Below are positions 18,701 through 63,945 of a DNA stretch of 64,000 bases, piece after piece. Source of the stretch: Minisyncoccota bacterium. Lineage in GTDB: Bacteria; Patescibacteriota; Minisyncoccia; Phycocordibacterales; SBAW01. The stretch lies in assembly GCA_035546575.1 (NCBI GenBank), contig DASZWN010000001.1, positions 119,254 to 183,253 on the forward strand. The letters are read 5' to 3'. The number at the start of each line of letters is the position of its first letter. Position 1 is the first letter of the stretch. A program made the position numbers and the translations under genes. The notes below the pieces were generated by a model. It did not search any database and was not told where the DNA came from. It saw only the letters and a program-made list of their open reading frames with translations.

Positions 18701-19997
18701 AGGTGCCCAAGGCGGCGGCGGCGGATCGTTCGGTGCCCCGAGCACTAACGCTGTAGGCGGCGATGCGGCTAATGGGAAGGGCAATTCCAGCAAATATTCG
18801 GGAGGGAACGGCGGATACGGATATGGAGGGACTTCGGGCGGCGGTGGCGGCGCTGCCGGTCCTGCCGGTAAAGGGGGCGCAGGCGGTCCTGCTTTTGGAG
18901 GGACTGCAGTATCAGGTGCTGGCGGTGGTGGCAATGGCGGCGGCACAGACGGTACAAAGGGCGCGGGAGTAACTACCGGCGGGGCGGGTGGAAATAATGC
19001 GAATGGTACCGGCGGAGGGACAGCGGGCAATCCCGGTAATCCTGGTTCCAGCGGCGGCGGAGGCGGTGGTGCCGGAGGAGGAAACAGTAATCCCAATGTT
19101 GCCGGCGGAGCAGGAGGCGGAGGGATTGAATGGGATTCTTCTCACGGTTCGGGCGGCGGCGGCGGCGCTGGCGCACGGAAGAATAGCTCTATGTCCAATG
19201 GAGGAAACGGCGGACTGTATGGCGGCGGCGGCGGTGCCGGAGGAGCGGATGCCGGCACCGGTGCCTGCGGCACAGGCGGCAATGGAGCTCCAGGCATTAT
19301 CGTCATTACCTATACGCCTGCCGGCGGCACGCTTGATACCTCTGCAGCTCTTCCTGTTACGTTTTCGCTCGCGACGGGTGGTAATAACGCGATTCGCAAC
19401 AGCGACTACACGCTGTCGGGCGCAAGTATTGCAAATCCTTCCGGAAATACACTCACTATTCCGGCAGGACAAGCGTCTGTCGACGTGACAATAACTCCCG
19501 TCCAGGATCTTCTTTATGAAGGCAATGAGCCGGTCACTATGACTATCCAACCGCCTGGCGACTCCAGCTATACCGTCGGTTCTCCGAACAGCGATACTGT
19601 CACCATCGTGGATCAGCAGGGTCCGACATCGTTACCAAATTCTTCAGGAGGGCTCACCTCATGTGTAGGCGTCGCAAGCGCGTCATGCAATCTCGGAGTT
19701 ACGCCGCAGCGTGTCCGCAGCGGAAGCTCCGTAACGGTTACGTGGTACGTGTCTGGTCTCATTACCGGAGCCAACGGGAACGGAAGCGACTCGTGCGTTA
19801 TTACTAAAACTCCTGATGACTCAGTCTTTCCTCAGAGTTGGAATCAATCCGGCAGTACCTGGATAAACGGCGGGGGTGTTTCGTCAGTCATCACTCAAAA
19901 CAGCGTATTCACGCTTACCTGTACCGCCCCTGACGGGATTACTAAAACCAGCACTTCGCAGTTGATCAGCATCATACCGGTTTTCCAAGAGATATAA
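15723..19997 (+). CDS. Giant secreted/surface protein, 1424 aa. Order: seven Cys-containing YKW-P..GCFG..C..FQ repeats, six BNR/Asp-box repeats (TDSGATWT), a Gly-rich TWTVP...VIGGGGG module, a Calx-beta-like domain, then the shared C-terminal domain ending IPVFQEI
   Basis: Signal anchor. Repeats visible in the translation: SxDxGxTW six times, consistent with a beta-propeller. Gly-rich region of about 300 aa. C-terminal ~90 aa homologous to the C-terminus of 6819..7808. Confidence 0.8.
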   Translation: MMSHEFLPRISFNRLTLLAKLTGGVAALVMFAVVFSGRIPISGGLGAATATFADGSVLTLTAADSSVTSGNSTKLSWNANLLPSCFGSDTTGCGKANASIASILPVQVFTIGTDPTPYLLAQNGIYKWITSGPTGAPCFGKDTSSSCGTVFQSIPPLTNGQQGIMAFTASNGTTYLATVEVYASPRLYKWLPTQNSGNGCFGNGTTCMSSAAASMFQNNFPTGPYSEGGFDWEYAYIGGNDYVMLTVGNAVYVYKWIAGTKNCFGDGTNCATPAVQFQTIAPPSPQSFYMRAFSIGTGAYLIVADSTTSTGGNSVVYRWNPTANSSKGCFGSTSSSNCGTAFQSGLSRGASASTAVSVTTLGSDQNPYLFLAPGVGGVGGSDNAGLIYKWNPSGNSSNGCFGTGSGTACGTSSGNFFQKLPLANWQMTATTTPIGTFLVTMVNSYDATPGNVYKWNPTGNGGLGCFGNGTACESATTKTNVWQTPFDYIAAPTTYALLSGNTYIVTPYSATQGGTYGAGIFKPRYPTCSVTWSNAGGSGTIGSGVVGVNVDTPPITQNTTYTLNCVGVGSVQVQVTIAAAAVTPIVSVSTIASPATESGTPGTLRITRAAGTTASKTVFLDSASGWTQRPSAGNRSWSSITSSSDGTKLAAVVGLDSAGYIYTSTDSGATWTERTGAGSHKWGSIASSADGTKLVAVVGGPGEGQSELGYIYTSTDSGATWTQRTGSGSRDWISVTSSSNGTKLAAAVFGGYIYTSTDSGATWTQRASSRLWSSITSSADDGTKLAAAVQSGYIYTSTDSGATWTERTTAGNRYWNSITSSSDGTKLAAGVYPQSPDESIYRSSDSGATWAPDPSVGSHDWQSVTSSSDGTKLAAVTESDTEGGGYSYTGSFPVNQWTVPSDWNSSNNKIEVIGGGGGAASTGGGGAGGGYSKSLNVSLTPGASLAYSVGSGGAGGGPGGTYPSCVLGAVGGNTYICNSTGSCTSLSDSGVLVGAQGGGGGSFGAPSTNAVGGDAANGKGNSSKYSGGNGGYGYGGTSGGGGGAAGPAGKGGAGGPAFGGTAVSGAGGGGNGGGTDGTKGAGVTTGGAGGNNANGTGGGTAGNPGNPGSSGGGGGGAGGGNSNPNVAGGAGGGGIEWDSSHGSGGGGGAGARKNSSMSNGGNGGLYGGGGGAGGADAGTGACGTGGNGAPGIIVITYTPAGGTLDTSAALPVTFSLATGGNNAIRNSDYTLSGASIANPSGNTLTIPAGQASVDVTITPVQDLLYEGNEPVTMTIQPPGDSSYTVGSPNSDTVTIVDQQGPTSLPNSSGGLTSCVGVASASCNLGVTPQRVRSGSSVTVTWYVSGLITGANGNGSDSCVITKTPDDSVFPQSWNQSGSTWINGGGVSSVITQNSVFTLTCTAPDGITKTSTSQLISIIPVFQEI

Positions 19998-33641: not shown

Positions 33642-34616
33642 ATGTCGAAGACAGACCAAATACGGCCGATGGTTATCGACTTGCCGCTCAAGTATCGCGG
33701 CAAAACGCGCGACACATATGAGGCCAAGTGGCCTGACCCAAACGACAAGCGCCGGCCGCCGCTCTTGATCGTGGCAAGCGACCGTATCTCGACGCATGAC
33801 GTCGTGCACAAGAGCATGATCCCAAAGAAGGGCGAGGTGCTCAATGCGCTAACGATCTTCTGGATCGTCGACGTGCTCGAGAAGCTCGGTATTGCTCACC
33901 ATCTCATTGCCTACGGCAAGAAGATCTATGATTACGTGCCGAAGCCGGACAGCGACCCCAAGGACGTACCGCTCCACCACCGAGCAATCGTAGTGAAGCA
34001 ACTCGATATAATTCTGGTCGAGTTTATCCTCCGGCAATTTCTGTGTGGGGGCTTGTGGAGCAAGCATTACAGTAAGGGTCTGGACCCTTACGGGCTCAGT
34101 ATCCCCGCAGGTCTTCCGCTCATGACGAACTTTGGCACGTTGGCAAAGTTTGCTGCACCCGTCTTCACTCCGACCAAGAAATCGGATGAAGAACATGATC
34201 CGCCGCTACTGAGCGAGGCGACTGCTCGGGAACATCCGGAGGCTCTTATGCTCAGCCGAAAAGTGTTCGATCGCGGCAGGCAACGTCTCCGTACGAGGGG
34301 AATCGAGCTCATCGACTCCAAGTTCGAGTTTGGGATCGACGAAGATGGTCAGGTGGTGCTCGCCGATGAGGTTCTCACGCCTGACTCAAGCCGCTTCGCA
34401 CTGCTCAGCGACATCAAGGAGGGGGAGAACCCGCCTTGGCTCGATAAGCAGATCGCTCGCGATTGGGCGGAAAAGCATTGGGGGCTTAACCCCAAAGAGC
34501 CTCTGGTATTTCCACCTCTTACGATCAGCGGCATCCGCAATACCTACGTCGATCTATTCGAGCAGATCGTCGGCATGAAGCTCAGTCAGTTCCAGCACGA
34601 ACGGCTCGACAACTAG
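33642..34616 (+). CDS. purC: Phosphoribosylaminoimidazole-succinocarboxamide (SAICAR) synthase
   Basis: YRGKTRDTYE, LLIVASDRISTHDVV, DSKFEFG, DEVLTPDSSRF motifs. SD GGAGG. Confidence 0.85.
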   Translation: MSKTDQIRPMVIDLPLKYRGKTRDTYEAKWPDPNDKRRPPLLIVASDRISTHDVVHKSMIPKKGEVLNALTIFWIVDVLEKLGIAHHLIAYGKKIYDYVPKPDSDPKDVPLHHRAIVVKQLDIILVEFILRQFLCGGLWSKHYSKGLDPYGLSIPAGLPLMTNFGTLAKFAAPVFTPTKKSDEEHDPPLLSEATAREHPEALMLSRKVFDRGRQRLRTRGIELIDSKFEFGIDEDGQVVLADEVLTPDSSRFALLSDIKEGENPPWLDKQIARDWAEKHWGLNPKEPLVFPPLTISGIRNTYVDLFEQIVGMKLSQFQHERLDN

Positions 34617-42358: not shown

Positions 42359-43633
42359 ATGAATACCTTTATACAACGACTCACGCTTCTCATCGCAGAC
42401 AAGTCGCTGCGCAATCGGCTATTGTTCGTAGTCGGCGCGCTCGCTGTATTCCGCGTACTCGCGGCTATTCCGATTCCGGGCGTTAACGCGGCCCAGCTGC
42501 AAAACTTTTTTGCTAACAATCAGTTTTTCGGTCTCCTCAACCTCTTCTCGGGCGGCGGCCTTTCGAGCCTCTCCATTGTGATGCTCGGCGTAGCGCCGTA
42601 CATCACGGCCTCTATCATCATGCAGCTCCTTACGATGATGATTCCGGCGCTCAAACAGCTCTACCAGGAAGAGGGGGAAGCGGGTCGCCAGCGCTTTAGC
42701 CAATACACCCGCATGCTCGCGCTTCCGATAGCGGTGCTCCAGGGTGTTAGCTTTTTGCTTATCCTCGAGCGCCAGGGCGTACTCACGGTACTTTCGCCAT
42801 TTAACTTTGCGGCAAACTTGCTTGTGATAACGGCAGGCTCACTCCTCCTTATGTGGATCGGCGAGCTTATCTCGGAGTTCGGTCTCGGCAACGGCGTATC
42901 GCTCATCATTTTTGCCGGCATTGTGTCCCGCCTTCCAGAAACTATCAGCCAGAGCATCTTCGCATTCGACTCAACGCAGGTTCCGGTATATCTCGGCTTC
43001 CTTGCGGGGGCTATCGCAGTTATCGCGGCAGTCGTCGTTATCAGCGAGGCTGAGCGTCCGGTGCCGGTAACCTACGCCAAGCGCGTTCGCGGTATGAAGT
43101 TTATCTCCGGCGGCGGTTCAACCTACCTTCCGCTTCGCCTTAACCAGGCAGGCGTTATCCCGATTATCTTTGCGCTCTCACTCCTCCTTATCCCGCAGAT
43201 GTTCGCGAGTTTCTTCTCAACCTCAAGCAACGCAATCCTTTCCGGCATCTCGGCTTCAATACTCAGCACCTTCCAAAACCTGACCATCTACGGCAGCCTC
43301 TACTTTGTCTTCGTGTTCCTCTTTACCTACTTCTACACTGCAGTTACGTTCGACCCGAACCAGATCTCGGAAAATCTGCAGAAGAACGGCGCGTTTATCC
43401 CGGGTGTGCGCCCAGGCATTTCCACCTCTGAGCATCTCGCACGCATCATTACGCGCATCACGTTTGTGGGCGCGCTCTTCCTCGCGATCATCGCGGTGCT
43501 CCCGATTATCATGCAGTCGATAACGGGTATCACCACGCTCGCGCTGGGCGGTACTGCGCTCCTCATCGTGGTTCAGGTGATCCTCGACCTCGCGCGTCGC
43601 ATTGACGCGCAGATCTCAATCCGCGAGTATTAA
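42359..43633 (+). CDS. secY: Protein translocase subunit SecY
   Basis: 10-TM SecY family with conserved segments. Confidence 0.95.
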   Translation: MNTFIQRLTLLIADKSLRNRLLFVVGALAVFRVLAAIPIPGVNAAQLQNFFANNQFFGLLNLFSGGGLSSLSIVMLGVAPYITASIIMQLLTMMIPALKQLYQEEGEAGRQRFSQYTRMLALPIAVLQGVSFLLILERQGVLTVLSPFNFAANLLVITAGSLLLMWIGELISEFGLGNGVSLIIFAGIVSRLPETISQSIFAFDSTQVPVYLGFLAGAIAVIAAVVVISEAERPVPVTYAKRVRGMKFISGGGSTYLPLRLNQAGVIPIIFALSLLLIPQMFASFFSTSSNAILSGISASILSTFQNLTIYGSLYFVFVFLFTYFYTAVTFDPNQISENLQKNGAFIPGVRPGISTSEHLARIITRITFVGALFLAIIAVLPIIMQSITGITTLALGGTALLIVVQVILDLARRIDAQISIREY

Positions 43634-43636
43634 TAG

Positions 43637-44218
43637 ATGGAGAAGCAGGGCAAACTCGTTCTCGTTATTGGCCCAACTGGCAGCGGAAAGAGTGCGCTCA
43701 TGGCACATGCGCGGCAAGCCGTGCCTGGCCTCGTGTTTCCGATATCGTGCACTACTCGCGCGATGCGACCCGGCGAAGTCGAAGGAGAAAATTATTTTTT
43801 TGTAACTCCAGAGGAGTTTGAACGCCGCGTTAAAGCGGGCGATTTTCTAGAGTGGAAGCATACCGACGAAAAGCGCTACGGCACCCTTAAATCACAGATT
43901 CTTACGCCGCTCGCAGAAGGTAAGACCGTCATTCGAGAGGTTGAGATACGCGGCGCGCGCGATATTTTGGGCGGCCTCGTCCCGCGCGATCTCGTACACA
44001 CTATATATATCGACGGCGGTTCGTGGGAGCAGCTTGAGGCGCGCATTTTAAGACGTGCTTCCATGGGAGAGGTCGAGCTTGCATCACGCCGCACCCGCTA
44101 TGCGGAGGAGTCGGTTTTTAAGAACGAAGCGGATGTGGTGATAGAAAATACGGAGGGCAAGCTGGAAGAGGCAAAACAAGAGTTCGAGAAAGCTATCCGG
44201 GCTATCATGGAAGCGTAA
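43637..44218 (+). CDS. gmk: Guanylate kinase
   Basis: GPTGSGKSAL P-loop; RPGEVEGENYFFV. Confidence 0.85.
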   Translation: MEKQGKLVLVIGPTGSGKSALMAHARQAVPGLVFPISCTTRAMRPGEVEGENYFFVTPEEFERRVKAGDFLEWKHTDEKRYGTLKSQILTPLAEGKTVIREVEIRGARDILGGLVPRDLVHTIYIDGGSWEQLEARILRRASMGEVELASRRTRYAEESVFKNEADVVIENTEGKLEEAKQEFEKAIRAIMEA

Positions 44219-44238
44219 TATAGTTTAAAATACCTAGC

Positions 44239-44832
44239 GTGAATCAACTTACCGTAATCTTTTTAGGGCCGCAAGGGAGTGGAAAGGGCACACACGCAAA
44301 TATGTTTCAGGAGGACCTCAAGCGGCTCGACGCCGGTCGTCCCATCGTTCACTTTGAGATGGGCAAAAATCTGCGCGACTTGGCTTCCGGCAACTCGTAC
44401 ACGGGGAGACTGCTCCAAGAAGTAATCAGCCGCGGAGAGCTGGTACCGTTTAACATCAGCAGCAGCGTGCTCTCGCAATATCTCATCAGCGCCATGCAAG
44501 GCAACGAACATCTTATCATCGACGGCTTTCCCCGCAGCGAAACACAGATGGACGTTGTAGACACCACCATGCAATTTTATAAGCGCGAGTCTCCAACCGT
44601 CGTGCACATCAATATTTCCGATGAAGAAGGGCTTAAGCGCCTCCTCAAGCGCGGCCGCTCCGACGATACCGAGGACAATATTCGCAGACGTCTTGCCTGG
44701 ACTCGTGCTGAGTGGGATAAAATCCGCAAACGACTAGACGCAAATCCAATGTACAAAGTACTCGAGATAGATGGCGACCACAGTATCGAGGACGTACATG
44801 CCGATATTCTCGCCAAATTAGGTTTAGCATGA
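44239..44832 (+). CDS. adk: Adenylate kinase
   Basis: GPQGSGKGT P-loop; IDGFPR. Confidence 0.9.
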   Translation: MNQLTVIFLGPQGSGKGTHANMFQEDLKRLDAGRPIVHFEMGKNLRDLASGNSYTGRLLQEVISRGELVPFNISSSVLSQYLISAMQGNEHLIIDGFPRSETQMDVVDTTMQFYKRESPTVVHINISDEEGLKRLLKRGRSDDTEDNIRRRLAWTRAEWDKIRKRLDANPMYKVLEIDGDHSIEDVHADILAKLGLA

Positions 44833-45590
44833 TAGCAAAAACACAAAGCGAAATAAAAAATCTGCGCGAAGCAGGGAAGCGCATGGCTGAGGTGGTGCGC
44901 GAGGTGCTTGCTGCGGTCAAGCCGGGAGTTTCTTCTATGGAGCTTGAGCGTATCGCACGCGAGGCAACCAAACGGGTTGATGCTGTGCCATCGTACTTAG
45001 GCTATGGCGTAAAAGGGGAAAACATATATCCGGCAGCACTCTGTGTTTCTATCAACGACGATATTGCGCATAGTCCGCCCACTCCAGATAAAATTTTAAA
45101 AAAGGGAGATGTGGTCTCGATCGACTTCGGTCTCAACTATAAGGGCGCGTTTATGGATACTGCCTACACGATTGCCGTGGGCGAGGTAGACAGCAAAGCA
45201 AAAAATCTTATTGCTGGCACTGAAGCCGCGCTTGCGGTTGGTATAGATGCTGCGCGTGTCGGAGGCAAAACTGGCGACATTGGTGCGGCAGTTGAGGCAG
45301 TAGCAAAGCAATACAAACTCGACGTCGTGCGCGACTTACGCGGTCACGGCGTTGGCAAGGCAGTGCACGAGGCACCAAATATTCCAAACTTTGGCACTAA
45401 AGGCAAAGGAGTAGAGATGGTAGAGGGCTTGGTGATTGCGATCGAACCGATTTTCGCAGAAGGCTCCGGTGAGATGGTAGACAAGGGCGACGGATTTACC
45501 TACACGACCAAAGACGGCTCGCGCGCCGCGCATTTTGAGCACACGGTGCTTATCACCAAAGACGGTCCGGAGATTTTAACGCTCTTGTAA
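44829..45590 (+). CDS. map: Methionine aminopeptidase, type I
   Basis: Pita-bread fold sequence with metal-ligand residues (D..D..H..E..E). Confidence 0.9.
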   Translation: MIAKTQSEIKNLREAGKRMAEVVREVLAAVKPGVSSMELERIAREATKRVDAVPSYLGYGVKGENIYPAALCVSINDDIAHSPPTPDKILKKGDVVSIDFGLNYKGAFMDTAYTIAVGEVDSKAKNLIAGTEAALAVGIDAARVGGKTGDIGAAVEAVAKQYKLDVVRDLRGHGVGKAVHEAPNIPNFGTKGKGVEMVEGLVIAIEPIFAEGSGEMVDKGDGFTYTTKDGSRAAHFEHTVLITKDGPEILTLL

Positions 45591-45619
45591 AAACTCCCGC
45601 ACTATTGTAGAGTGCTGCC

Positions 45620-46204
45620 ATGCAGCATCCTAAAGAGGAGAAGACATTCGTGCTTATAAAACCCGATGGGGTCCGTAAGGGCCTGGTGGGTGAGATTATC
45701 AAGCGCTTTGAGCAGCGCGACCTTAAGGTCGTGGCGCTCGAAATGTTTGAGCCATCGCGCGCCGAGATGGATCAACATTATCCAAAAGACGAAAAGTGGC
45801 TGACCCGCATCGGCGACAAGACCGCCGCAACCTACGAGAAGTACGGTTACGATATCAAAAAAGATTTTGGCACGACCAACCGTCTTTCGATCGGCAAAGA
45901 AGTACGCAAATGGCTCATCACGTTCATGACCTCGGCGCCGATGGTTAAGATGGTGGTACAGGGCGTGCATTCGGTAGATATGGTCCGCAAAATCGTGGGG
46001 CCTACGATGCCATACCTAGCTGAGATGGGCACCATCCGTGGCGATTACTCCGCAGATTCGGCCATAAGCGCAAATATGGAGAAACGCGCGGTGTTTAACC
46101 TGGTCCATGCAAGCGAGACTCCCGAGGAGGCGCGTCACGAGATCAATCATTGGTTTGGTAAAAAGAACATCTTTCACTACAAGCGTTTTGGTATTGATGA
46201 ATAA
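45620..46204 (+). CDS. ndk: Nucleoside diphosphate kinase (with insertion)
   Basis: EKTFVLIKPDGVRKGLVGEIIKRFE...GPTMPY...GTIRGDY. Confidence 0.85.
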   Translation: MQHPKEEKTFVLIKPDGVRKGLVGEIIKRFEQRDLKVVALEMFEPSRAEMDQHYPKDEKWLTRIGDKTAATYEKYGYDIKKDFGTTNRLSIGKEVRKWLITFMTSAPMVKMVVQGVHSVDMVRKIVGPTMPYLAEMGTIRGDYSADSAISANMEKRAVFNLVHASETPEEARHEINHWFGKKNIFHYKRFGIDE

Positions 46205-47887: not shown

Positions 47888-48490
47888 ATGGATCCTAAAC
47901 AGACGCATCTGCAGCTGAAGCTTTGCGTGTCCGGTGCTGCCGAGACTGGACACTGCGGTATCGATGCATACGACAAAGGTGTTGAGCTTGGCCGCCAGAT
48001 AGCAAAACATGGCGCGATTGTTGTAACTGGTGCGACTACTGGCTTTCCACTTTGGTCGGCGATGGGCGCAAAACAGGCGGGCGGTTTTTCAATAGGGTTT
48101 TCTCCTGCAAACACCGAGAAGGAACATGTCGAGAGCTACAACCTGCCGATCGAGTACATGGACATGATTGTGTACACCGGCTTTGGCTATCCGGGCCGCG
48201 ACTTGATACTCACGCGCGCGTCGGACGCCGTATTTTTTGGCTGTGGGCGCATTGGTACCATCCACGAGTTTACTATCGCGTTTGAGGACAAAAAGCCGAT
48301 AGGCATTCTTGAGGCAGACTGGGAGACCGACGAGGTACTCAAAAATATTATCGAGAACGGCCATCGCGACAACGACCGCATCGTATTTGATACTGACCCA
48401 AAGGCGCTCGTGGAGCGTATTATCGAGCTTGTTAACAAAGACAAGATAAACAGAGCATCTTTCCACTTTGATGCAACGCAGAAAGCATAG
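47888..48490 (+). CDS. LOG/TIGR00725-like Rossmann-fold nucleotide-binding protein
   Basis: CVSGAAETG...IVVTGATTG...GGFSIGFSP fits the LOG/SLOG-type glycine-rich motifs. Confidence 0.5.
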   Translation: MDPKQTHLQLKLCVSGAAETGHCGIDAYDKGVELGRQIAKHGAIVVTGATTGFPLWSAMGAKQAGGFSIGFSPANTEKEHVESYNLPIEYMDMIVYTGFGYPGRDLILTRASDAVFFGCGRIGTIHEFTIAFEDKKPIGILEADWETDEVLKNIIENGHRDNDRIVFDTDPKALVERIIELVNKDKINRASFHFDATQKA

Positions 48491-51560: not shown

Positions 51561-53807
51561 TTACTGCGTCTGATGATCTCTGAACCATGTTGTGTATTTG
51601 TGTATTAAGTCTACACCATCTTTCATATTACCCTTGTCCTTTGCCAACAGATCCATGTCAGCTAAAGTCAACTTAATAGCTGCGGTCGTTATAGTAAGAA
51701 GTAATGCGTTTGCCTTAGTGCGTTTCGCAGGGATAACCTTCTCGATAGTTTCTTTAGTCTTAAGGAGCTCCTTTAATGCTTTGCAGTCAAAGACTAAATT
51801 GTCAGCAACAGCTTTTTTACCAATCCACTTGTTTTTGTAAGCCAGAGTCATGTCCGTAACACAAGTGTCTGGAGTGAGTGTGGTTAGTGGAGGCGGCGGG
51901 GAAGCGTCGGCAGTAATTGTAACCGCTGTGGTCGTAGAGGATAAGTAAAGCGAATTGTTTATTACTTGGTTGAGGGTAGTGGTGCCGCTCACGTAAGCCT
52001 CGTTTGTGGTTGTGCTCTGTATATAGCTTGTAGCGATGGTGTAAGTGCCATTGCCAGTACCCTTGGTTTGCACTTTATATGTGCCAGGCAAGGGGTCAAA
52101 AATAATTGCGTACTCATGTTCGGCATCCGGGCCTGAGTACAAAGCGTTAGGAATTTCGTTAACTACTGACCCGGTCGTAATATCTTTACCTATATGCGCG
52201 CCATTAGGAGCAGTAATCTCCATATTGATAGGAGAGAAAAGAAGAAAGAATAATATTGTATGATTTTCGGCAAAACTACCTATGGTTTGCATCAAATCCT
52301 TAAATTCCGAAGGCGTTGGTGATAGTTTATTTATCAAAACAGAGTAATCAGCATCTTTAAGAGGTACGAACACATTTCCCACGATTATCTGTGGATCCTT
52401 GTTATTTAATTGTCTAAATATATAAGCTGCACTTGTAGAAGCTACTTCTGTATGGTTCACCCCGTGAAACTCCTTATCAGCCGCACCAACAAGATTTTCT
52501 ATACTTACTCTTGGAACCGTCACGTCTCCTGTGTCAAAATAAGTCGCCGTAATTTCTCCATCTTGCCACTTTGGCAACACCGTGGAAGGTTTGGTAATAA
52601 AAAAACTGATGGTATTGCTAAGATCTGTATCAGCCAGAATAGTGTCAGTCCGTGCCGCCTTTGTAATCTTTGCGAAGTTAGACGCAATATTCTCTAGAAA
52701 TATATTTTTAGGTGGAGTGATGGTGTTGAAGTCGGAATCAAACAAATAATCATACGTAGGCAAAAGTTGTTGTATCGAAAGAACAGGCTTGTTTCTTAGG
52801 TAACTAAATGTATCGTTATAACCTGCTTGCTTTGCTTCTTTAGTAAAAACTCTTTCCAGCAGCATGTTTTGGAGTTTTGAGAAAATATCGTTTGAATCAG
52901 GGTCAATCTGACCACCTTCCCACATCTTATAAGCTTTAGGGGAACCTGATAGGGGGGTTGCGAGGAAGAAGACCTGGTCGACATCGTTTTTGTACCCAGG
53001 GCTCTCGATGTATTGGGCCGCAACCAGTCCTCCCATCGAGTGTCCTATCAAGTTTACATGGCTACAGTTGCAGATAGTTTTTATATCCTGGATCTTTTTT
53101 GCCAACACCGATGCGGTAACTTCGTTCGGCTCCTCCCAATCGTAGGGGAATTTAAAAAGAGTTTTACCGTCTACATAGCCGTTGGCTAGGAAAGTGTCGA
53201 CCAAGTTGTCGTAAATATGAGTAATTGGATCGAGTACCCACTCGCCGTTCTTTTGCCATGATCCGAGGATCCCAGGAATGATCACCACCGGCTCATACTC
53301 GCTCGCGGGTACGCCGCCCCACTTCCACTGTATGATCGCGTAGTTATTGCTTGGCAGTAGCGTGCCGGTAGTCGAGCCTGTTTTAAATGCGGCATCAAAC
53401 CTAGCAGCTTCGGTGCTTGAGCTGTATCCGTATACTACGGAAAAATAATTCTGATCCTGCGCTGGGCTGCCAAAGTTATTGGTATCTTCCTGTACAAGGG
53501 TAGGAGAGTCGCCCTGTATTTTATCACCAGCCACAAATATCGAGTTGCCAGGTACTCCTTTGTAGGTGGCGATCGTTTTGGTGCCGGGGATCTTCGAGGG
53601 AATGCTATACACGCACGGCCCCCCATTTTGAGCTACATAATGCTTTCCTGACTCAAAAGAAAATTTGTATGGACTACAGGAGAAGCTGAATGGTTGGGCT
53701 CCATATACAGGATCAAAGGAGAGGTTGGTAGTGTTGGCAAGGGCTACCGATGTTCCCAGAGATAGGAATATGCCTGCAACCAGAGAGATAATGCCAACTA
53801 CACGCAT
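51561..53807 (-). CDS. Secreted alpha/beta-hydrolase (lipase/esterase-like, GHSMGG nucleophile elbow) with C-terminal beta-rich domains
   Basis: Signal peptide. GxSxG motif as GHSMGG. The N-terminal ~430 aa are paralogous to 53985..57239. The 3' half is markedly AT-rich. Confidence 0.8.
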   Translation of the reverse strand: MRVVGIISLVAGIFLSLGTSVALANTTNLSFDPVYGAQPFSFSCSPYKFSFESGKHYVAQNGGPCVYSIPSKIPGTKTIATYKGVPGNSIFVAGDKIQGDSPTLVQEDTNNFGSPAQDQNYFSVVYGYSSSTEAARFDAAFKTGSTTGTLLPSNNYAIIQWKWGGVPASEYEPVVIIPGILGSWQKNGEWVLDPITHIYDNLVDTFLANGYVDGKTLFKFPYDWEEPNEVTASVLAKKIQDIKTICNCSHVNLIGHSMGGLVAAQYIESPGYKNDVDQVFFLATPLSGSPKAYKMWEGGQIDPDSNDIFSKLQNMLLERVFTKEAKQAGYNDTFSYLRNKPVLSIQQLLPTYDYLFDSDFNTITPPKNIFLENIASNFAKITKAARTDTILADTDLSNTISFFITKPSTVLPKWQDGEITATYFDTGDVTVPRVSIENLVGAADKEFHGVNHTEVASTSAAYIFRQLNNKDPQIIVGNVFVPLKDADYSVLINKLSPTPSEFKDLMQTIGSFAENHTILFFLLFSPINMEITAPNGAHIGKDITTGSVVNEIPNALYSGPDAEHEYAIIFDPLPGTYKVQTKGTGNGTYTIATSYIQSTTTNEAYVSGTTTLNQVINNSLYLSSTTTAVTITADASPPPPLTTLTPDTCVTDMTLAYKNKWIGKKAVADNLVFDCKALKELLKTKETIEKVIPAKRTKANALLLTITTAAIKLTLADMDLLAKDKGNMKDGVDLIHKYTTWFRDHQTQ

Positions 53808-53984: not shown

Positions 53985-56900
53985 TTACAAACCTGCAGGG
54001 ACGGGAATTGTGCTGTTGCCGCTCGGGAGCGTGAAGGTCATCGTTGGCGAGCCCGAGATGTTTATCGTGTCGGCTACGACTGCAAAGAAGTTCGAAGGGG
54101 TGTTCTTGGCACTGCCTGCGACATTGAGCTGCTGGCGAGGGAGGTAGACTACGCCGTCGAGCGTCAGAGTACCCGATCCTGCGAGCGTGGTTGCCGCAAG
54201 CGGCGTGCCGTTTGTATTTGAAGGATCAAGGAAGATAGCAAAACCTGCCATCGTGCCCGAGGTTGGCGCCGAGATGTCGAGCTTGCCGGAGCCGGCCAGA
54301 GTGAGGCCCGCACCGCTGCCTGTCATAAAGAACGAGACGCCGTCGCCCGTGACCGACGCACTACCCGCGATGCTCAAGTCGCCGCCCTTAAGGATATAGA
54401 TGCCCGGGTTAAGCGTGAGTTTTGCCGAGCCGTCTACCGTGATGCCGCCGCAGTATACGCCGGGGCTGATTGTTGCTTTGTTATTTTGTGCCAGCGTGTA
54501 GTTGGTCTGCGTGCATGCGCCGACTGCTGGTTTTGCGTGGCTGGCAAACGGATCGGCGATGGCGGTGCACGAAACCGCGTTAGGCGAGATTGACGCGCTT
54601 CCGGATTTAGAAACCGTGCCGACGATGCAGTTCTTAGTCGAAGTAATCTTGGTGCTGCCGCTAATGTTGACTGCGCCGCTTGAGTTTGAGTTTACCTGCA
54701 CGCCGCAGTTGGTGCCCTTGATCTGCGTGCTGCCCGCAAGCGTAATCGCGCCCGCACCGCTTGTCTTGAGTGCTACTGCACATGCGCCTGTGCCGGTTGA
54801 AACTTGCGGCGCGCTTATCTTGAACGAGCTCGTCGCATAGCCAGTGTTGCCTGCAGCGTCGGTCGCAGAGATCACGAACGTGCTGGTACCTACCGGTGCA
54901 GACGAGAATGGCAGGGCTTGTGCTGGGTTTACTGAGGCGCCATTAAACTTGTACGTCTTGGTAGGTATAGCCGATCCCTCCGGGTCGGTGATCGTGAAGG
55001 CGGGCACGACGGAATCGGTCGTGAGATACGAACCGTTGTTTTGCGGCGCGGTTATGGTTATCACCGGAGCACCTGTGTCTGCCGGCGGAGGCGCTACAAC
55101 AACCGAGAACGATGACGTTGCGTAGCCAGTGTTGGTAAACACATCGGTTGCAGACACAACTAGTGTTGATGTGCCGAGCGGGAGATTTGCGAAGTTGATC
55201 GGCTGCGCTGGGTTGATCAGTACACCGTTAAGACGATAGGTGCTTGTTGCGATAGGGGAGTTTTCCGGATCGGTAAATGTTGCAGACACCGAGGTTGTCG
55301 CGTTGTTGAAGTATGCGTGGTTTTGCTGTGGGCTGTTGATAACGACTGCAGGCGGATTGATGTCGAGCGACTCGATAGTGATTGAGTCTGATGTGGTTGC
55401 AAGCGTGAACTGGAGACCTATGAGTTGACCGGGTGTTGTTTGGGTCGGGGCAGTACTTGTTGCAACAACGCCCTGGCCGCAGACATCGGATGCGTTAACG
55501 CTAAAGTTGCCGGTACCGGAGCCCTGCGTGCGGATCTGGTAGATGCCGTTGATCGGGTTTACGACAATACCGTACTCAGGAGCTGCAGCAAAACCGGAAT
55601 AGATAGAGTTGCCGATCTCGTGGAAGGTGCCGCTACCGCCCAGGTCCTTGCCAAGGCGATTGCCGTTAGGGTCCGTAATCTGCATGTCGGCCGGCGAAGT
55701 GGTGGTGAGGAAGAGCACGCAACTCACCGGATATGAGGTTGTTACGGTCGGAAGCGGCGCTTTGCTGTTGAGGAGCGTAAAGACATAGCTCTGCGATGCG
55801 GTAGGGAGTGCGCGGTGCGCCACGGGGAACTCATGGTCGGGTTGGACATAATTCTCGATACTTGCACGTGGCACCATGCCGTCGCCTGTATCGGTAAAGG
55901 TGTTGGTTGGCTGACCCTCGGGCCACAGCGGCGGCTGCGAGGACGGCGCTACGGTATAAAGCGTAGTTGTCTGCCCCGTGTTGTCATCTGCAAGGATCGT
56001 GTTTACGCGCACGCGGTTAAACACATTGAGCCCGTAGTTCGAGATCAAGTTCTCGATAAAGGTGTTGCGCGGGTAACCGGTTGGGTACGTGTAGGTGTTA
56101 AAGTCGTTGTCAAAGAGATAATCATAGGTCGGGAGCATTTCTTGGAACGAGAGCACCGGCTTGTTATGAATATAGTCGAACACACTCAGGAATCCGAGCT
56201 CTTTTGCTGATGCGCCCAGGAATACCTGCGCAAGGCCGTCTGAAAGCGGACTGCCAAAAGAGATCTGGCCGCCCTCCCATGCGAGGTACGCCGCCGGCAC
56301 GCCGCCGAGTGGTGTTGCCATCAGCACAAGCTGGTCGACGTCGTTTTGGTAGTCGGTTCCGCCGATGTACTGCTCGGCAATGAGGCCGCCGGTGCCGTGC
56401 GCGACAACATCAACATGCGAGCAGCCGCAGGCAGCTTTTACGTCCTGGATTTTATTCTTGAGTGCCTGCGCCGTCAGGATATTTGAATCCTGCCAGTTGT
56501 ACGGCATCGGAAAGAATGTCTGGTTGAGCACGTAGCCGTTTGCCAAGAATGTGTCAGTAAGGTTTTGGTAGATATGGAATATCGGGTCGATTACGAGCCC
56601 CGTGTCGGTCTGCCATGAGTTAAGAATGTCGGGTACCAATAGCACAGGCTCGTACTCGCTTGCGGGCTTGCCGCCCCATTTCCACTGAATGAGCGCGTAA
56701 TTATTGCCGGGAGGGAGCACGTTGGTCGAGGAGCCGTTTTTAAATGATGCGTCGTAGAGCGCAGCATCGGCCGGAGTTGTGTAGCCGTATACAACCGAGA
56801 AATAGTTCTGATCCTGGAGCGGCGAGCCAAAGTTGTTGGTGTCCTCCTGCACCAAAGTAGGAGAGCCCTGTATCTGGTCGCCAGCTACGAAGGTCGAGTT

Positions 56901-57239
56901 GCCAGGTACTCCTTTATAGGTAGCGATAGTCTTGGTACCAAGGACTGTCGAAGGGATAGTGTACACGCACGGACCGCCGTTTTGCGCGACGTAATGGTTA
57001 CCGGCCTGGAAGCCGATTTTGTACGGACTGCAGTAAAAGGTGAGCGGCTGTGAGCCGTAGCTCGGATCAGATGAGAGATTAGTAGTGTTTGCAAAAACGG
57101 GTGTAATAAATAAAAAGAATCCTGCCAGCACCCCAACCGCGCCCGTGATAAGTCGTGTATGCATATGCCTATACGATACTATATATAGGAGCTGCGTATA
57201 AGAAGCCTTCAGGATACCTGTGTAAAAGCTCCTAGACAC
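53985..57239 (-). CDS. Large secreted lipase-like paralogue, 1084 aa. The nucleophile Ser is replaced (AHGTGG), so it is probably non-catalytic. Ig-like and beta-helix-like C-terminal region
   Basis: N-terminal 430 aa align with 51561..53807, but GHSMGG becomes AHGTGG. Long Thr/Ser/Gly-rich C-terminus with repeated ..SGSG..LTLAGS.. segments. Confidence 0.8.
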   Translation of the reverse strand: MSRSFYTGILKASYTQLLYIVSYRHMHTRLITGAVGVLAGFFLFITPVFANTTNLSSDPSYGSQPLTFYCSPYKIGFQAGNHYVAQNGGPCVYTIPSTVLGTKTIATYKGVPGNSTFVAGDQIQGSPTLVQEDTNNFGSPLQDQNYFSVVYGYTTPADAALYDASFKNGSSTNVLPPGNNYALIQWKWGGKPASEYEPVLLVPDILNSWQTDTGLVIDPIFHIYQNLTDTFLANGYVLNQTFFPMPYNWQDSNILTAQALKNKIQDVKAACGCSHVDVVAHGTGGLIAEQYIGGTDYQNDVDQLVLMATPLGGVPAAYLAWEGGQISFGSPLSDGLAQVFLGASAKELGFLSVFDYIHNKPVLSFQEMLPTYDYLFDNDFNTYTYPTGYPRNTFIENLISNYGLNVFNRVRVNTILADDNTGQTTTLYTVAPSSQPPLWPEGQPTNTFTDTGDGMVPRASIENYVQPDHEFPVAHRALPTASQSYVFTLLNSKAPLPTVTTSYPVSCVLFLTTTSPADMQITDPNGNRLGKDLGGSGTFHEIGNSIYSGFAAAPEYGIVVNPINGIYQIRTQGSGTGNFSVNASDVCGQGVVATSTAPTQTTPGQLIGLQFTLATTSDSITIESLDINPPAVVINSPQQNHAYFNNATTSVSATFTDPENSPIATSTYRLNGVLINPAQPINFANLPLGTSTLVVSATDVFTNTGYATSSFSVVVAPPPADTGAPVITITAPQNNGSYLTTDSVVPAFTITDPEGSAIPTKTYKFNGASVNPAQALPFSSAPVGTSTFVISATDAAGNTGYATSSFKISAPQVSTGTGACAVALKTSGAGAITLAGSTQIKGTNCGVQVNSNSSGAVNISGSTKITSTKNCIVGTVSKSGSASISPNAVSCTAIADPFASHAKPAVGACTQTNYTLAQNNKATISPGVYCGGITVDGSAKLTLNPGIYILKGGDLSIAGSASVTGDGVSFFMTGSGAGLTLAGSGKLDISAPTSGTMAGFAIFLDPSNTNGTPLAATTLAGSGTLTLDGVVYLPRQQLNVAGSAKNTPSNFFAVVADTINISGSPTMTFTLPSGNSTIPVPAGL

Positions 57240-61630: not shown

Positions 61631-62356
61631 TTATTGGGCTACTGCGAGCGCTTCTTTCAGGTCGAGCGTACCTGCGTACAGAGCCTTGCCGACAATGACG
61701 CCTTCGACGCCAGTCTGCTTCAGCTGTCGAATGTGTTCGATCGATTTCACGCCTCCGGCGGCTAGTACATGCATCGGTGCCATTAGTCCTTCCGCATATT
61801 TAACCACCCGCTCGGTAGCATGCAGGTTTGGCCCCGCAAGAGTCCCATCGCGCGAGATATCCGTGTACACGATCCTCGTTATGCCAACGTCCGATAAGAG
61901 GAGAATCAGATCATGCACCGACATGGTGCTGTGCTTCGACCAACCTTCGATAGCGATCGCGCCGTCCTTGGTGTCTATGCTGACGACCATATAGGGTGCA
62001 TGTTGTTTTGCCATCCGCTTGAACGTGTCGCGCGCGGTTACCGCAGCGGTCGAGATTACCACTCGGTCGGCTCCAAACGTGCGGTAGTGTCCAATTGCAG
62101 GACTACTGCGAAGGCCTCCGCCCACTTGCACGTGCACAGAGGTTTGCTGCATGAGCGCGTGTATGATTTTGAAGTTTTCCGCTTTCCCCGAACGCGCGGC
62201 GTCTAAGTCGATAACATGCAGACGTTTTGCGCCCGCATCAGTCCACCTTTTGGCTGCTGCCGTGGGTGTGCCGTAGTACTCCGGCTTGTCAGCGATACCC
62301 TGGGTGAGCCGCACACAGCGACCCCCCTGTATGTCGATTGCAGGAATGATTTCCAT
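61631..62356 (-). CDS. hisA: HisA/PriA-family (beta/alpha)8 ProFAR isomerase
   Basis: MEIIPAIDIQGGRCVRLTQG..., GGGLRS. SD AGGAGG before the ATG at 62356. The longer ORF-track start at 62401 is rejected. Confidence 0.75.
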   Translation of the reverse strand: MEIIPAIDIQGGRCVRLTQGIADKPEYYGTPTAAAKRWTDAGAKRLHVIDLDAARSGKAENFKIIHALMQQTSVHVQVGGGLRSSPAIGHYRTFGADRVVISTAAVTARDTFKRMAKQHAPYMVVSIDTKDGAIAIEGWSKHSTMSVHDLILLLSDVGITRIVYTDISRDGTLAGPNLHATERVVKYAEGLMAPMHVLAAGGVKSIEHIRQLKQTGVEGVIVGKALYAGTLDLKEALAVAQ

Positions 62357-62517
62357 TTCAAGCCTCCTTTTGAATCGTCTGATCTGGAGGCACCATAACA
62401 TAAGTCATACATTTTTTAAATTAAAGGACTTTTGTGATATAGTGGTACTTTAGAGTCTCAGGGTTCATCCCAACAGCTCTTTTCTCAAATTCTAGAGAGG
62501 CAAAAGGAGGAATAATC

Positions 62518-63945
62518 ATGGCCGATGGCCAAGATCTCGAGTTACTCGCTTTCCGGTTGAAGCTTGGAGGTTCGCGCATCAAAAAGCGCGCGTTTCTGAG
62601 CACCGGTAACCCCGACAATAAACAGCGCATGCTTTCTGGAGCCAAATCTCTCGCCGAGCTTGGCGTGGAGATATATGCAACCAGCGGCACAAGCGCTTTT
62701 CTCGACGAGCACGGGGTCTCCAATACCCGCGTCAACAAGATTGCGGAAGGGGGAGGCTCCAGTATCCAGCCCCTGCTCGAAAGCGGCCGGTTTGACCTGG
62801 TCGTCAACGTGCTCACCGGTGACAGCGACTACGACGAAAATTCCGATGCAAAGGTGATCCGGCGGCTTGCCATCGAGCACGGCGTTCCGCTTATCACCGA
62901 CGTTGTGGTCGCCGTCGACACTATCGAGCGCATGGTCGCTCAGATCAAGAGCGAACGTGGGCGAAAGACTTATGTGAGCATGCAGGAGTACTTTGCATCG
63001 CTTGTTCACGATCGTGGTGGTTATGCTGACAATCACGGCCACTACGACAAGGCGTACCTTATCACGCCTGACACGCTGCAAGTTGGGCAGATTGACATGA
63101 CGGAAAAGTGGCGGCTCTACCGCCAGCTCAAGGAAGGCTATACGCATGAAGATCTGATCACGCGCATTTCCCGATGCGTCGACTTTCGCTCGTCGCATGG
63201 TGTGCCCTTCATGCGTACCATGGTAGATGCGGATACTCTCGTCGAACTCAAGTGCATCGAAGCAGCGCTTGAGGTGAAGCGGCGGTATGCCGGCAAGGCT
63301 ACCATCGAGATCGGCATCCAACCACTCGAAGGTGTTCTTGAACCCGGTCCACGCAAGTGGGTGGAGAAGGCCTGTGGCATGGCCGACTTTATCGGAGGCT
63401 TGCCGTCTCGCGACGGTCCGCGCCCCGAAGCCCATCTGGACTTCATCATGGGCATGGCTCGCGAAATGGGAAAGCGGATCGACGTGCATGTCGATCAAAA
63501 AGGTGTGCCGTGGGAGAACGAAACCAAATTACTCGCCCTCAAGACGATCGAGTACGGACTTGAAGGTCGAGTTGCTGCGGTCCACTCGATTATCTCCCGC
63601 AAGCCACTCTACGAGCAAAAAGAGATCGCCAAGATGACCACGGACGCGGGTATCACCGTTGTGGTGTGTCCCGGCGCCGAGATCAGCATGAAGCAGGAGG
63701 ACATGCAGGGGCAGCTTTCAAACTGCATCCCTCCCGTTTCTATCTATCGAGAAGCGGGCACGAAGGTGGTCTACGGTTCCGACAACACCGAAGATCCTTT
63801 CATGCCGTTCTCCGATGGTGATCCATGGTACGAAGCTCGCTTCCTTATGGATGCGGTGCGGACGTATGCGGCTAATGAGGTGGCCGACATAATGTGCGAT
63901 AAGTCCTTGTTCGGACAGAATGCCGCTGTCTCGCAAGCGGCATAA
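62518..63945 (+). CDS. Two-domain protein: N-terminal MGS-like domain (as in PurH IMP-cyclohydrolase or CarB C-terminus) fused to a C-terminal metal-dependent amidohydrolase domain
   Basis: KRAFLSTGNPDNKQ...EIYATSGTSAFL...RFDLVVNVL is MGS-like. Downstream HGH (HxH), HVDQ, HSI and YGSDN fit amidohydrolase-superfamily ligands. Confidence 0.65.
   Translation: MADGQDLELLAFRLKLGGSRIKKRAFLSTGNPDNKQRMLSGAKSLAELGVEIYATSGTSAFLDEHGVSNTRVNKIAEGGGSSIQPLLESGRFDLVVNVLTGDSDYDENSDAKVIRRLAIEHGVPLITDVVVAVDTIERMVAQIKSERGRKTYVSMQEYFASLVHDRGGYADNHGHYDKAYLITPDTLQVGQIDMTEKWRLYRQLKEGYTHEDLITRISRCVDFRSSHGVPFMRTMVDADTLVELKCIEAALEVKRRYAGKATIEIGIQPLEGVLEPGPRKWVEKACGMADFIGGLPSRDGPRPEAHLDFIMGMAREMGKRIDVHVDQKGVPWENETKLLALKTIEYGLEGRVAAVHSIISRKPLYEQKEIAKMTTDAGITVVVCPGAEISMKQEDMQGQLSNCIPPVSIYREAGTKVVYGSDNTEDPFMPFSDGDPWYEARFLMDAVRTYAANEVADIMCDKSLFGQNAAVSQAA

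Follow-up and report, generated by a model that had tools for sequence, protein, structure and literature searches.

A gene close to the end of a 64,000-nucleotide stretch of a Minisyncoccota bacterium genome (contig DASZWN010000001.1 of assembly GCA_035546575.1, forward-strand positions 119,254 to 183,253; hereafter the window) encodes a 475-residue protein in which an N-terminal MGS-like domain is joined to a C-terminal amidohydrolase domain. Considering its catalytic residues together with the genes found beside its homologues, we propose that the product is probably an amidohydrolase of a pyrimidine or nucleotide pathway, and not a cytosine deaminase. More tentatively, we favor the reading that it is a non-canonical, nucleotide-regulated, dihydroorotase-type enzyme, an analogue of PyrC standing outside the PyrC family.

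Domain architecture and catalytic residues

The gene is a complete ATG-to-stop open reading frame (ORF) in the ORF list of the window, and its product is identical to protein P0001, which carries the database name 'hydrolase [Candidatus Paceibacterota bacterium]'. The AlphaFold2 model of the protein is confident (mean pLDDT 88, pTM 0.79). Its domains and key residues map to the window as follows.

62518..63945, forward strand: complete ORF encoding an MGS-like domain followed by a PRK06886-type amidohydrolase (ORF list; the architecture recurs in more than 100 homologous clusters)
62563..62910, forward strand: MGS-like domain, residues 16-131, nearest to the carbamoyl-phosphate synthetase allosteric domain
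62620..62622, forward strand: Lys35, aligned to CarB Lys954 of the nucleotide-phosphate pocket (HMMER alignment; kept in 106/106 fusions)
62680..62691, forward strand: T55-S-G-T58 (family motif A-T-x-G-T), aligned to CarB T974-H-G-T977 (HMMER alignment)
62737..62739, forward strand: Lys74, aligned to the UMP-binding CarB Lys993 (HMMER alignment; 100 Lys and 6 Arg among 106 fusions)
62806..62808, forward strand: Asn97, aligned to CarB Asn1015 (HMMER alignment; kept in 106/106 fusions)
62965..63897, forward strand: amidohydrolase (β/α)8 barrel, residues 150-460, PRK06886 type, without the β-sandwich of CodA and AtzC
63034..63051, forward strand: H173-G-H175-Y-D177-K178, strand-1 metal-binding HxH and D-K motif (alignments)
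63487..63498, forward strand: H324-V-D326-Q327, strand-5 metal-binding His, with Gln in place of the HxxE Glu (aligned to HCDE of 4r7w/CodA)
63583..63585, forward strand: His356, strand-6 His, aligned to CodA His246 (alignment; invariant)
63781..63786, forward strand: D422-N423, strand-8 metal-binding and general-base Asp followed by Asn (alignment; invariant or nearly so)

The N-terminal domain is matched by the Pfam MGS profile PF02142 over residues 38-127 (E=2.8e-18; 66.3 bits against a cut-off of 24.1; profile positions 2-94 of 94). Its nearest solved relatives are the allosteric domain of Escherichia coli CarB (residues 933-1040 in 1a9x/1bxr) and human CPS1 (2yvq), the CarB allosteric domain (933-1073) and CPS1 2YVQ being the best N-terminal matches with E-values of about 1e-8 to 1e-13, and the NCBIfam CarB models score 48.9 and 43.9 bits. 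The PurH IMP-cyclohydrolase profile, by comparison, yields merely 18 bits over 54 residues (23-76) of a 510-position model whose cut-off is 402, and methylglyoxal synthase is matched with E=0.11 only (12.2 bits against a cut-off of 84), all matches to MgsA structures in the PDB having E-values above 0.3.

The HMMER alignment pairs S948, K954, T974, G976, T977, K993 and N1015 of CarB with S28, K35, T55, G57, T58, K74 and N97 of the fusion protein, and CarB D1025 and R1030 align with the conserved D110 and R115. We take the roles of the pocket residues other than T977 and K993 from the structure of carbamoyl-phosphate synthetase with IMP, in which Asn1015 presumably takes part in ribose binding. 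The pocket residues K35, T55, T58, K74, S28 and N97 are kept in 100-106 of the 106 fusions (T55 in 104/106, T58 in 106/106), and G57 is kept in all 106. In CarB, Thr977 is crucial for inhibition by UMP, and T977 and K993 are the key residues for UMP (PMC6245113). By its sequence, the MGS-like domain is a homologue of the CarB allosteric domain that binds UMP/IMP, with the phosphate pocket kept, and we infer that it may bind a nucleoside monophosphate, which would give nucleotide feedback control of the enzyme. Its partner is a hydrolase, whereas that of the CarB domain is an ATP-grasp synthetase. Since members of the same family exist as stand-alone proteins devoid of the MGS domain, the latter would be accessory and not the catalytic core, its role being most plausibly regulatory. 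The same order of domains, an MGS-like allosteric domain of carbamoyl-phosphate synthetase (CPSase) followed by a domain of amidohydrolase fold, is established for the CPSase-dihydroorotase (DHOase) junction of eukaryotic CAD.

Residues 150-460 match the NCBIfam model NF005365 (PRK06886, 'hypothetical protein') over profile positions 4-315 of 327 with an E-value of 4.4e-100. The score of 334.9 bits falls just below the curated cut-off of 340, and a stand-alone relative from a Kaiserbacteria genome (locus L094) scores 365.6 bits, above that cut-off. The fusion is a sub-branch of the PRK06886 family and belongs to the same family in the broad sense: the stand-alone NF005365 barrels of ~320 residues have all catalytic-site residues in common with it, the fusion adds the MGS domain, and the function of the family is unassigned in NCBIfam. 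The domain has the features of the amidohydrolase superfamily, namely a (β/α)8 barrel with HxH on strand 1, His on strands 5 and 6 and Asp on strand 8, and its nearest solved relatives in both sequence and structure are 5-methylcytosine/cytosine deaminase and AtzC. Across 187 sequences (106 fusions, 39 stand-alone and 42 viral homologues), H173, H175, H324, H356 and D422 are invariant, as is D177, and position 178 is Lys or Arg. The water-activating site (HxH, His, His, Asp) is retained in full, and the C-terminal domain is probably a mononuclear metal amidohydrolase.

The residues that would make this domain a cytosine deaminase, in contrast, are replaced. The HxxE glutamate (Glu217 in CodA and 5-methylcytosine deaminase; 1K6W, 4R7W) is Gln327 in 106/106 fusions, 39/39 stand-alone and 42/42 viral homologues. 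At the position of CodA Gln156 (FPQEG) stands an invariant Leu270 (QPLEG), preceded two residues earlier by an invariant Gln268. The N- and C-terminal β-sandwich present in CodA-type deaminases is also absent: alignments span approximately residues 54-337 of the 400-430-residue deaminases, stand-alone homologues are 310-350 residues long, and in the fusion it is the MGS domain that occupies the place of the N-terminal half of the sandwich. In CodA and related deaminases, the HxxE Glu is a proton shuttle that protonates the ring nitrogen of the amidine substrate; Gln327 would rather suit a substrate that already carries a proton on its ring nitrogen, i.e., a lactam or a ureide. The replacement of the HxxE Glu by Gln and of CodA Gln156 by Leu, together with the missing β-sandwich, argues that the protein is not a cytosine deaminase, and its C-terminal domain appears to have branched from the cytosine-deaminase/AtzC lineage and to have lost the features required for amidine deamination.

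AtzC (N-isopropylammelide isopropylaminohydrolase; 2QT3, 4CQB) shares the HxHxD-K motif with the family in the form HTHMDK, is likewise devoid of the HxxE Glu, and has D303-N304 where the fusion protein has D422-N423 and CodA D313-D314. It differs from the fusion protein in retaining the β-sandwich, in carrying Gln160 at the position of Leu270, and in belonging to a recent catabolic pathway with neither an MGS domain nor a pyr-gene context. Nor does the protein belong, by sequence and structure, to the PyrC family, which is marked by a binuclear site with a strand-4 bridging carboxylated Lys (or Asp) and by DHOase-type substrate loops.

Protein searches retrieved homologues of 450-526 residues with the MGS and amidohydrolase domains, at 45-77% identity and falling into more than 100 clusters (90% identity), from Paceibacterota, Planctomycetota (Telmatocola, Phycisphaera), Acidobacteriota, Cyanobacteria and others. 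When genomes, one for each species, were scanned with a pattern, ~440 matches came back, among them Hyphomicrobium, Rhodomicrobium, Hirschia, Zavarzinella, Myxococcota, cable bacteria, Competibacteraceae, Thiotrichales, Dehalococcoidia and Saccharibacteria. With 106 full-length homologues (at least 450 residues) carrying the same fusion, an artefact of gene calling or an artificial fusion was ruled out. After clustering of a library at 50% identity, just ~5 representatives carried the fusion, against dozens of barrel-only proteins of 310-350 residues, so that the fusion is one rather compact branch within a stand-alone family of greater diversity. The stand-alone form also occurs on 42 IMG/VR viral contigs, including giant-virus metagenome-assembled genomes (MAGs) and contigs of 270-465 kb, and BFVD contains one viral member of the family, A0A516M768 (TM 0.92); a scan of metagenome contigs with the single protein gave one locus only. 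Source annotations of the homologues name the family 'cytosine deaminase' or 'hypothetical'. Literature searches on the architecture, on PRK06886, on non-canonical dihydroorotases and on cog0402 subgroups found no characterization of the family, and PDB/structure and literature searches found no characterized or structurally solved protein with the MGS-amidohydrolase architecture. Two kinds of candidates were set aside. 'Phage' matches from Enterococcus, Escherichia and Salmonella turned out to be ordinary or frameshifted codA-type genes in UNVERIFIED_ORG records and were excluded from the family, as the HxDQ and DNxxD motifs are absent from them; the Zur-regulated PyrC paralogues (PMC2770081) are PyrC-family proteins outside the PRK06886-type family.

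Part of what the initial annotation had read in this gene holds up: the ORF does encode an MGS-like domain followed by an amidohydrolase, the metal ligands HxH...H...H...D are all present, and the architecture, which it did not know from characterized enzymes, was found in no such enzyme by the searches above. The fusion it called unusual proved to be widespread, its IMP-cyclohydrolase-type MGS domain is instead of the CarB allosteric kind, and of its 'cytosine/guanine deaminase-like' hydrolase the fold stands but the catalytic Glu and the substrate-binding Gln do not.

Genes adjoining the family

In Patescibacteria, a gene of the dihydroorotate dehydrogenase (DHOD) family adjoins the family gene in eight of nine distinct genomes (the window's own contig, L002, and L003, L005, L011, L091, L092, L093 and the stand-alone gene at L094, with none at L007). 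The DHOD gene lies upstream or downstream and may be divergent, convergent or co-directional. Those of L005 and L011 encode class-2, quinone-type PyrD proteins scoring above the curated PyrD equivalog cut-offs; the remainder are class-1-like and fall into at least three mutually very dissimilar types. The DHOD neighbours derive from at least four lineages and not from one inherited partner. The amidohydrolases flanked by these dissimilar DHODs share 56-80% identity, and the DHOD active-site loop, NxxCPN or NVSSPN, is kept in 12/12 DHOD neighbours. The neighbour in the genome studied here lies just past the window, where a coordinate on L002 equals the window coordinate minus 60137.

64040-65038 in window numbering (L002 3903-4901), reverse strand: DHOD neighbour, very divergent and class-1-like, convergent with the fusion gene

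Against DHOD models this protein scores just 32 bits, and it does not significantly resemble the DHOD neighbours found in sister genomes; the loop is retained as NVTCPN.

Two of these loci reach further into the pathway. In Kaiserbacteria (L094), a pyrE-like gene, the DHOD gene, the amidohydrolase gene and argH follow one another in the same direction with gaps of 1, 151 and 8 bp. At L011, what remains of an E. coli-type pyrC, 73 codons long (~22-290, reverse strand; 44% identity to PyrC residues 10-61), in which HxH has become HVY and a stop occurs within the contig, lies directly after the class-2 pyrD and divergent from the fusion gene. This remnant may be a decayed canonical dihydroorotase.

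Outside Patescibacteria, the order pyrD, phosphoribosyltransferase gene (pyrE-like), fusion gene was found in a Xanthobacteraceae locus (L046). In gamma- and alphaproteobacteria, the gene is flanked by ArgG, as the immediate divergent neighbour in L009, L031 and L064 and as a near gene in L083, or by ArgF, as the immediate divergent neighbour in L078 and L074. The canonical pyrC of Pseudomonas aeruginosa (PA3527) is two locus tags away from argG (PA3525) (PMC2577666), an arrangement that the family gene beside ArgG mirrors; the argG side is therefore a position that a dihydroorotase is known to occupy.

On viral contigs L095/96, L098, L102 and L105, the stand-alone gene is found with a short DHOD (loop NISCPN) and orotidine 5′-monophosphate (OMP) decarboxylase, the latter being fused on some of them to a phosphoribosyltransferase. 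Islands of nucleotide-metabolism genes span, for example, positions 7980-16930 of L098 and 2253-4983 of L105 (IMG/VR loci L095-L136), and ThyX is encoded near the stand-alone gene in seven viral loci. When contigs were scanned starting from the viral DHOD, the amidohydrolase was present in 4/4 contigs whose upstream region was not cut off; a scan with the viral PyrF-PyrE fusion returned near-identical contigs only. An isolated giant virus has been reported with genes for DHOD 1A and OMP decarboxylase (PMC8490762). Taken together, the recurrent gene context points to pyrimidine synthesis (dihydroorotate and orotate), which was not on the initial annotation's list.

Other neighbours were recorded on the same contigs. 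A gene encoding 2300-2400 residues lies immediately upstream in each of L098, L099 and L100, and L095 has a gene of at least 2619 codons running off the end of the locus; this giant neighbour shows weak tail-fibre similarity only. In the giant-virus MAG loci L109 (5631-7073, forward strand) and L107 (6725-7954, forward strand), citrate synthase and a papain-family protease are among the neighbours; these two suggest no link to nucleotide metabolism, unlike the neighbours on the phage-like contigs. In Hyphomicrobiaceae, a block encoding a YgfZ/CAF17-like folate-binding protein, the 3-methyladenine DNA glycosylase I Tag and an HD-domain (YfbR-like) protein follows the fusion gene or precedes it divergently in 12-13 loci, including L008, L034, L040, L043, L052, L070, L086 and L089. 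This block and the MetZ, photolyase and low-molecular-weight protein tyrosine phosphatase neighbours look like clade-level synteny and provide no functional lead.

Candidate reactions

Within the pathway, the neighbours of DHOD are dihydroorotase and orotate phosphoribosyltransferase. As the amidohydrolase repeatedly joins DHOD, pyrE and pyrF, the dihydroorotase step is the simplest reading of its role. For its substrate and mechanism we infer the following. Acting beside DHOD in the late de novo pyrimidine pathway, the enzyme would reversibly interconvert N-carbamoyl-L-aspartate and L-dihydroorotate by closing and opening the ring, the reaction and pathway position of the dihydroorotases of PyrC types I-III. 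Metal-bound hydroxide would attack the C4 carbonyl and Asp422 would hand a proton to the leaving ring nitrogen; Gln327, in lieu of protonating an amidine nitrogen, would hydrogen-bond the protonated N3-H/C=O of the dioxo-pyrimidine ring. The CarB-like domain would add feedback by a nucleoside monophosphate. A broader proposal, which we hold more loosely, is that PRK06886-type proteins with or without the CarB-like domain form a hitherto unrecognized, evolutionarily independent class of dihydroorotases issued from the cytosine-deaminase/AtzC branch. Such enzymes would fill the pyrC step in some Patescibacteria and serve large viruses as an auxiliary gene alongside DHOD and UMP synthase; those with the fusion would be subject to UMP/IMP-type feedback, a bacterial parallel to the CAD junction.

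Several observations weigh against a dihydroorotase. All dihydroorotases that we know of are binuclear members of another branch of the amidohydrolases. No neighbour is universal across the 80 genome loci, and most of the ~75 loci from outside Patescibacteria have neighbours unrelated to pyrimidines, in bacteria that probably also have a canonical pyrC. Within Patescibacteria, most DHOD neighbours stand convergent or divergent to the gene and share no operon with it, the loci are not fully independent since a SmpB-FtsH...RecG block is conserved among them, and the pyrC remnant of L011 calls for caution as it sits at the end of a MAG contig. Among the viral contigs, whose status in all 42 cases is that of the IMG/VR classification only, L152 has a DHOD gene with no amidohydrolase within reach, and purB, purA and IMPDH/GMP reductase genes adjoin the copies in L098 and L101; in L098 they form an operon, which would also fit a purine-related role.

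The alternative that survives best, although we consider it unlikely, is a hydrolase that works at the carbamoyl-phosphate/aspartate node on some other cyclic amide, ureide or triazine-like compound, with the MGS domain as nucleotide sensor. Candidate activities include a dihydropyrimidinase- or hydantoinase-like ring opening, hydrolysis of carboxymethylhydantoin or ureidosuccinate, and an AtzC-like displacement on a dioxo ring. The HxHxDK and D-N motifs common to the family and to AtzC, which acts on a 2,4-dioxo six-membered ring, are consistent with such an activity, as are the arginine genes (ArgG, ArgF, ArgH) that occur besides the pyrimidine genes and the mononuclear CodA/AtzC-type site, which is unlike the binuclear site of dihydroorotases. 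The DHOD-like neighbour at L094, moreover, also scores to the dihydropyrimidine dehydrogenase PreA (57.8 bits, against 69.8 for DHOD). The loop of the DHOD neighbours, however, reads CPN or SPN and not CPH, which we take to be the signature of dihydropyrimidine dehydrogenase; two of these neighbours lie above the PyrD equivalog cut-offs, the pyrE and pyrF neighbours indicate the biosynthetic direction, and no alternative substrate has a known place beside DHOD, orotate phosphoribosyltransferase and OMP decarboxylase.

Less probable again is a salvage deaminase of a nucleobase or nucleotide (cytosine, 5-methylcytosine, CMP/dCMP or a purine), the MGS domain of which would bind the 5′-phosphate of the substrate or of an effector and which, in viruses, would supply dUMP to ThyX or rebalance purine pools. 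Cytosine and 5-methylcytosine deaminases are the nearest characterized homologues by sequence and structure, source annotations agree with them, and ThyX or purA, purB and IMPDH/GMP reductase genes are found near viral copies; Patescibacteria, furthermore, depend largely on nucleotide salvage (10.64898/2026.06.21.733656). Yet a deaminase of this kind is difficult to reconcile with the exchange of the HxxE Glu for Gln in 187/187 family members, with the invariant Leu at the position of CodA Gln156 and with the missing β-sandwich, and it leaves the recurrent adjacency to DHOD, pyrE and pyrF unexplained.

A step in purine, histidine or 5-aminoimidazole-4-carboxamide ribonucleotide (AICAR) metabolism, such as an IMP-cyclohydrolase-like MGS activity coupled to the hydrolase, which the initial annotation had suggested from the hisA gene next door and from purC elsewhere in the window, is very improbable, for although hisA is genuine and divergent upstream, PurH has an MGS-like fold (with its weak 18-bit match) and some viral homologues adjoin purA and purB, hisA flanks the gene in this genome only (among ~150 related loci there is one other HisA-like match, ~10 kb away), purC is 28 kb off in a ribosomal-protein cluster and never near homologues, the MGS domain scores 48.9 bits with CarB against 18 with PurH, and stand-alone members without that domain share the same contexts.

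Surroundings of the gene and implications

Two further elements precede the fusion gene.

62506..62510, forward strand: ribosome-binding site GGAGG, with the ATG 7 nucleotides downstream (sequence reading)
62415..62443, forward strand: promoter-like site, TTTAAA, 17-nucleotide spacer and TG-TATAGT, with an extended -10 (consensus scan)

The promoter-like site (L002 2278-2306) sits in the 116-bp gap between the divergent hisA and the fusion gene and is a mere consensus match, the scan having found one site where 2.1 were expected in shuffled sequences. The 5′ leader of the fusion gene gave no Rfam match and no unusually stable structure, and hence no clue to a riboswitch. After the stop codon, just past the end of the window, a GC-rich bidirectional terminator hairpin (L002 3867-3889) is common to the fusion gene and the convergent downstream gene. 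An antisense ORF of 318 codons in the ORF list (62542-63498) is nested entirely within the fusion gene and was treated as a by-product of composition.

The window as a whole suits a Patescibacteria genome, with its ribosomal-protein cluster, SecY, SmpB, FtsH and genes for competence and type IV pili. The hisA gene (61631-62401, reverse strand; 246.8 bits with TIGR00007, cut-off 228.95) is isolated: the scan of window ORFs of at least 150 codons turned up no further gene of histidine biosynthesis, and sister genomes are devoid of hisA at the corresponding position. Region 42359-46204 was considered as a his operon that could explain it and was rejected, as Pfam identifies SecY, Gmk, Adk, Map and Ndk there. 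Guanylate kinase, adenylate kinase, methionine aminopeptidase and nucleoside-diphosphate kinase are encoded in one run after SecY (43637-46204, forward strand), and a compact group of nucleotide kinases closing the ribosomal cluster is consistent with a salvage-centred nucleotide economy. The purC gene (33642-34616, forward strand; SAICAR synthetase, Pfam E=2.9e-48) lies between the L2 region and S3 within the ribosomal-protein cluster, an odd location in a phylum mostly devoid of de novo purine synthesis. Elsewhere, two adjacent genes on the reverse strand (51561-53807 and 53985-57239) encode proteins of 748 and 1084 residues with LCAT/PGAP1-like α/β-hydrolase (lipase/acyltransferase) domains, in a region where the GC content drops to 0.45-0.47 and then rises to 0.57. 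A 1424-residue protein (15723-19997, forward strand), whose sole Pfam match is a weak EPTP repeat, is possibly a surface protein, and 47888-48490 (forward strand) encodes a protein of the SLOG cluster-4 (LOG-like) family, a nucleotide-processing fold often tied to nucleotide signalling or salvage.

The dihydroorotase reaction is, to our knowledge, found universally in core metabolism, and a single family of enzymes is credited with it. If the dihydroorotase reading holds, the family, which is itself already in databases, would be a separately evolved version of an enzymatic step already known, marked by its unusual regulatory domain and its occurrence in viruses. The scoring of pyrimidine pathways in genome annotation would then change, since current KEGG/Pfam reconstructions would call the pathway incomplete in organisms that use this enzyme, and Patescibacteria, whose nucleotide autonomy is actively debated, would be among those affected. 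Large viruses could carry four consecutive steps of pyrimidine synthesis, and a CarB-type nucleotide sensor on the dihydroorotase step would be a new regulatory arrangement. Whatever the substrate, the missing deaminase residues correct a widespread misannotation as 'cytosine deaminase' in hundreds of species.

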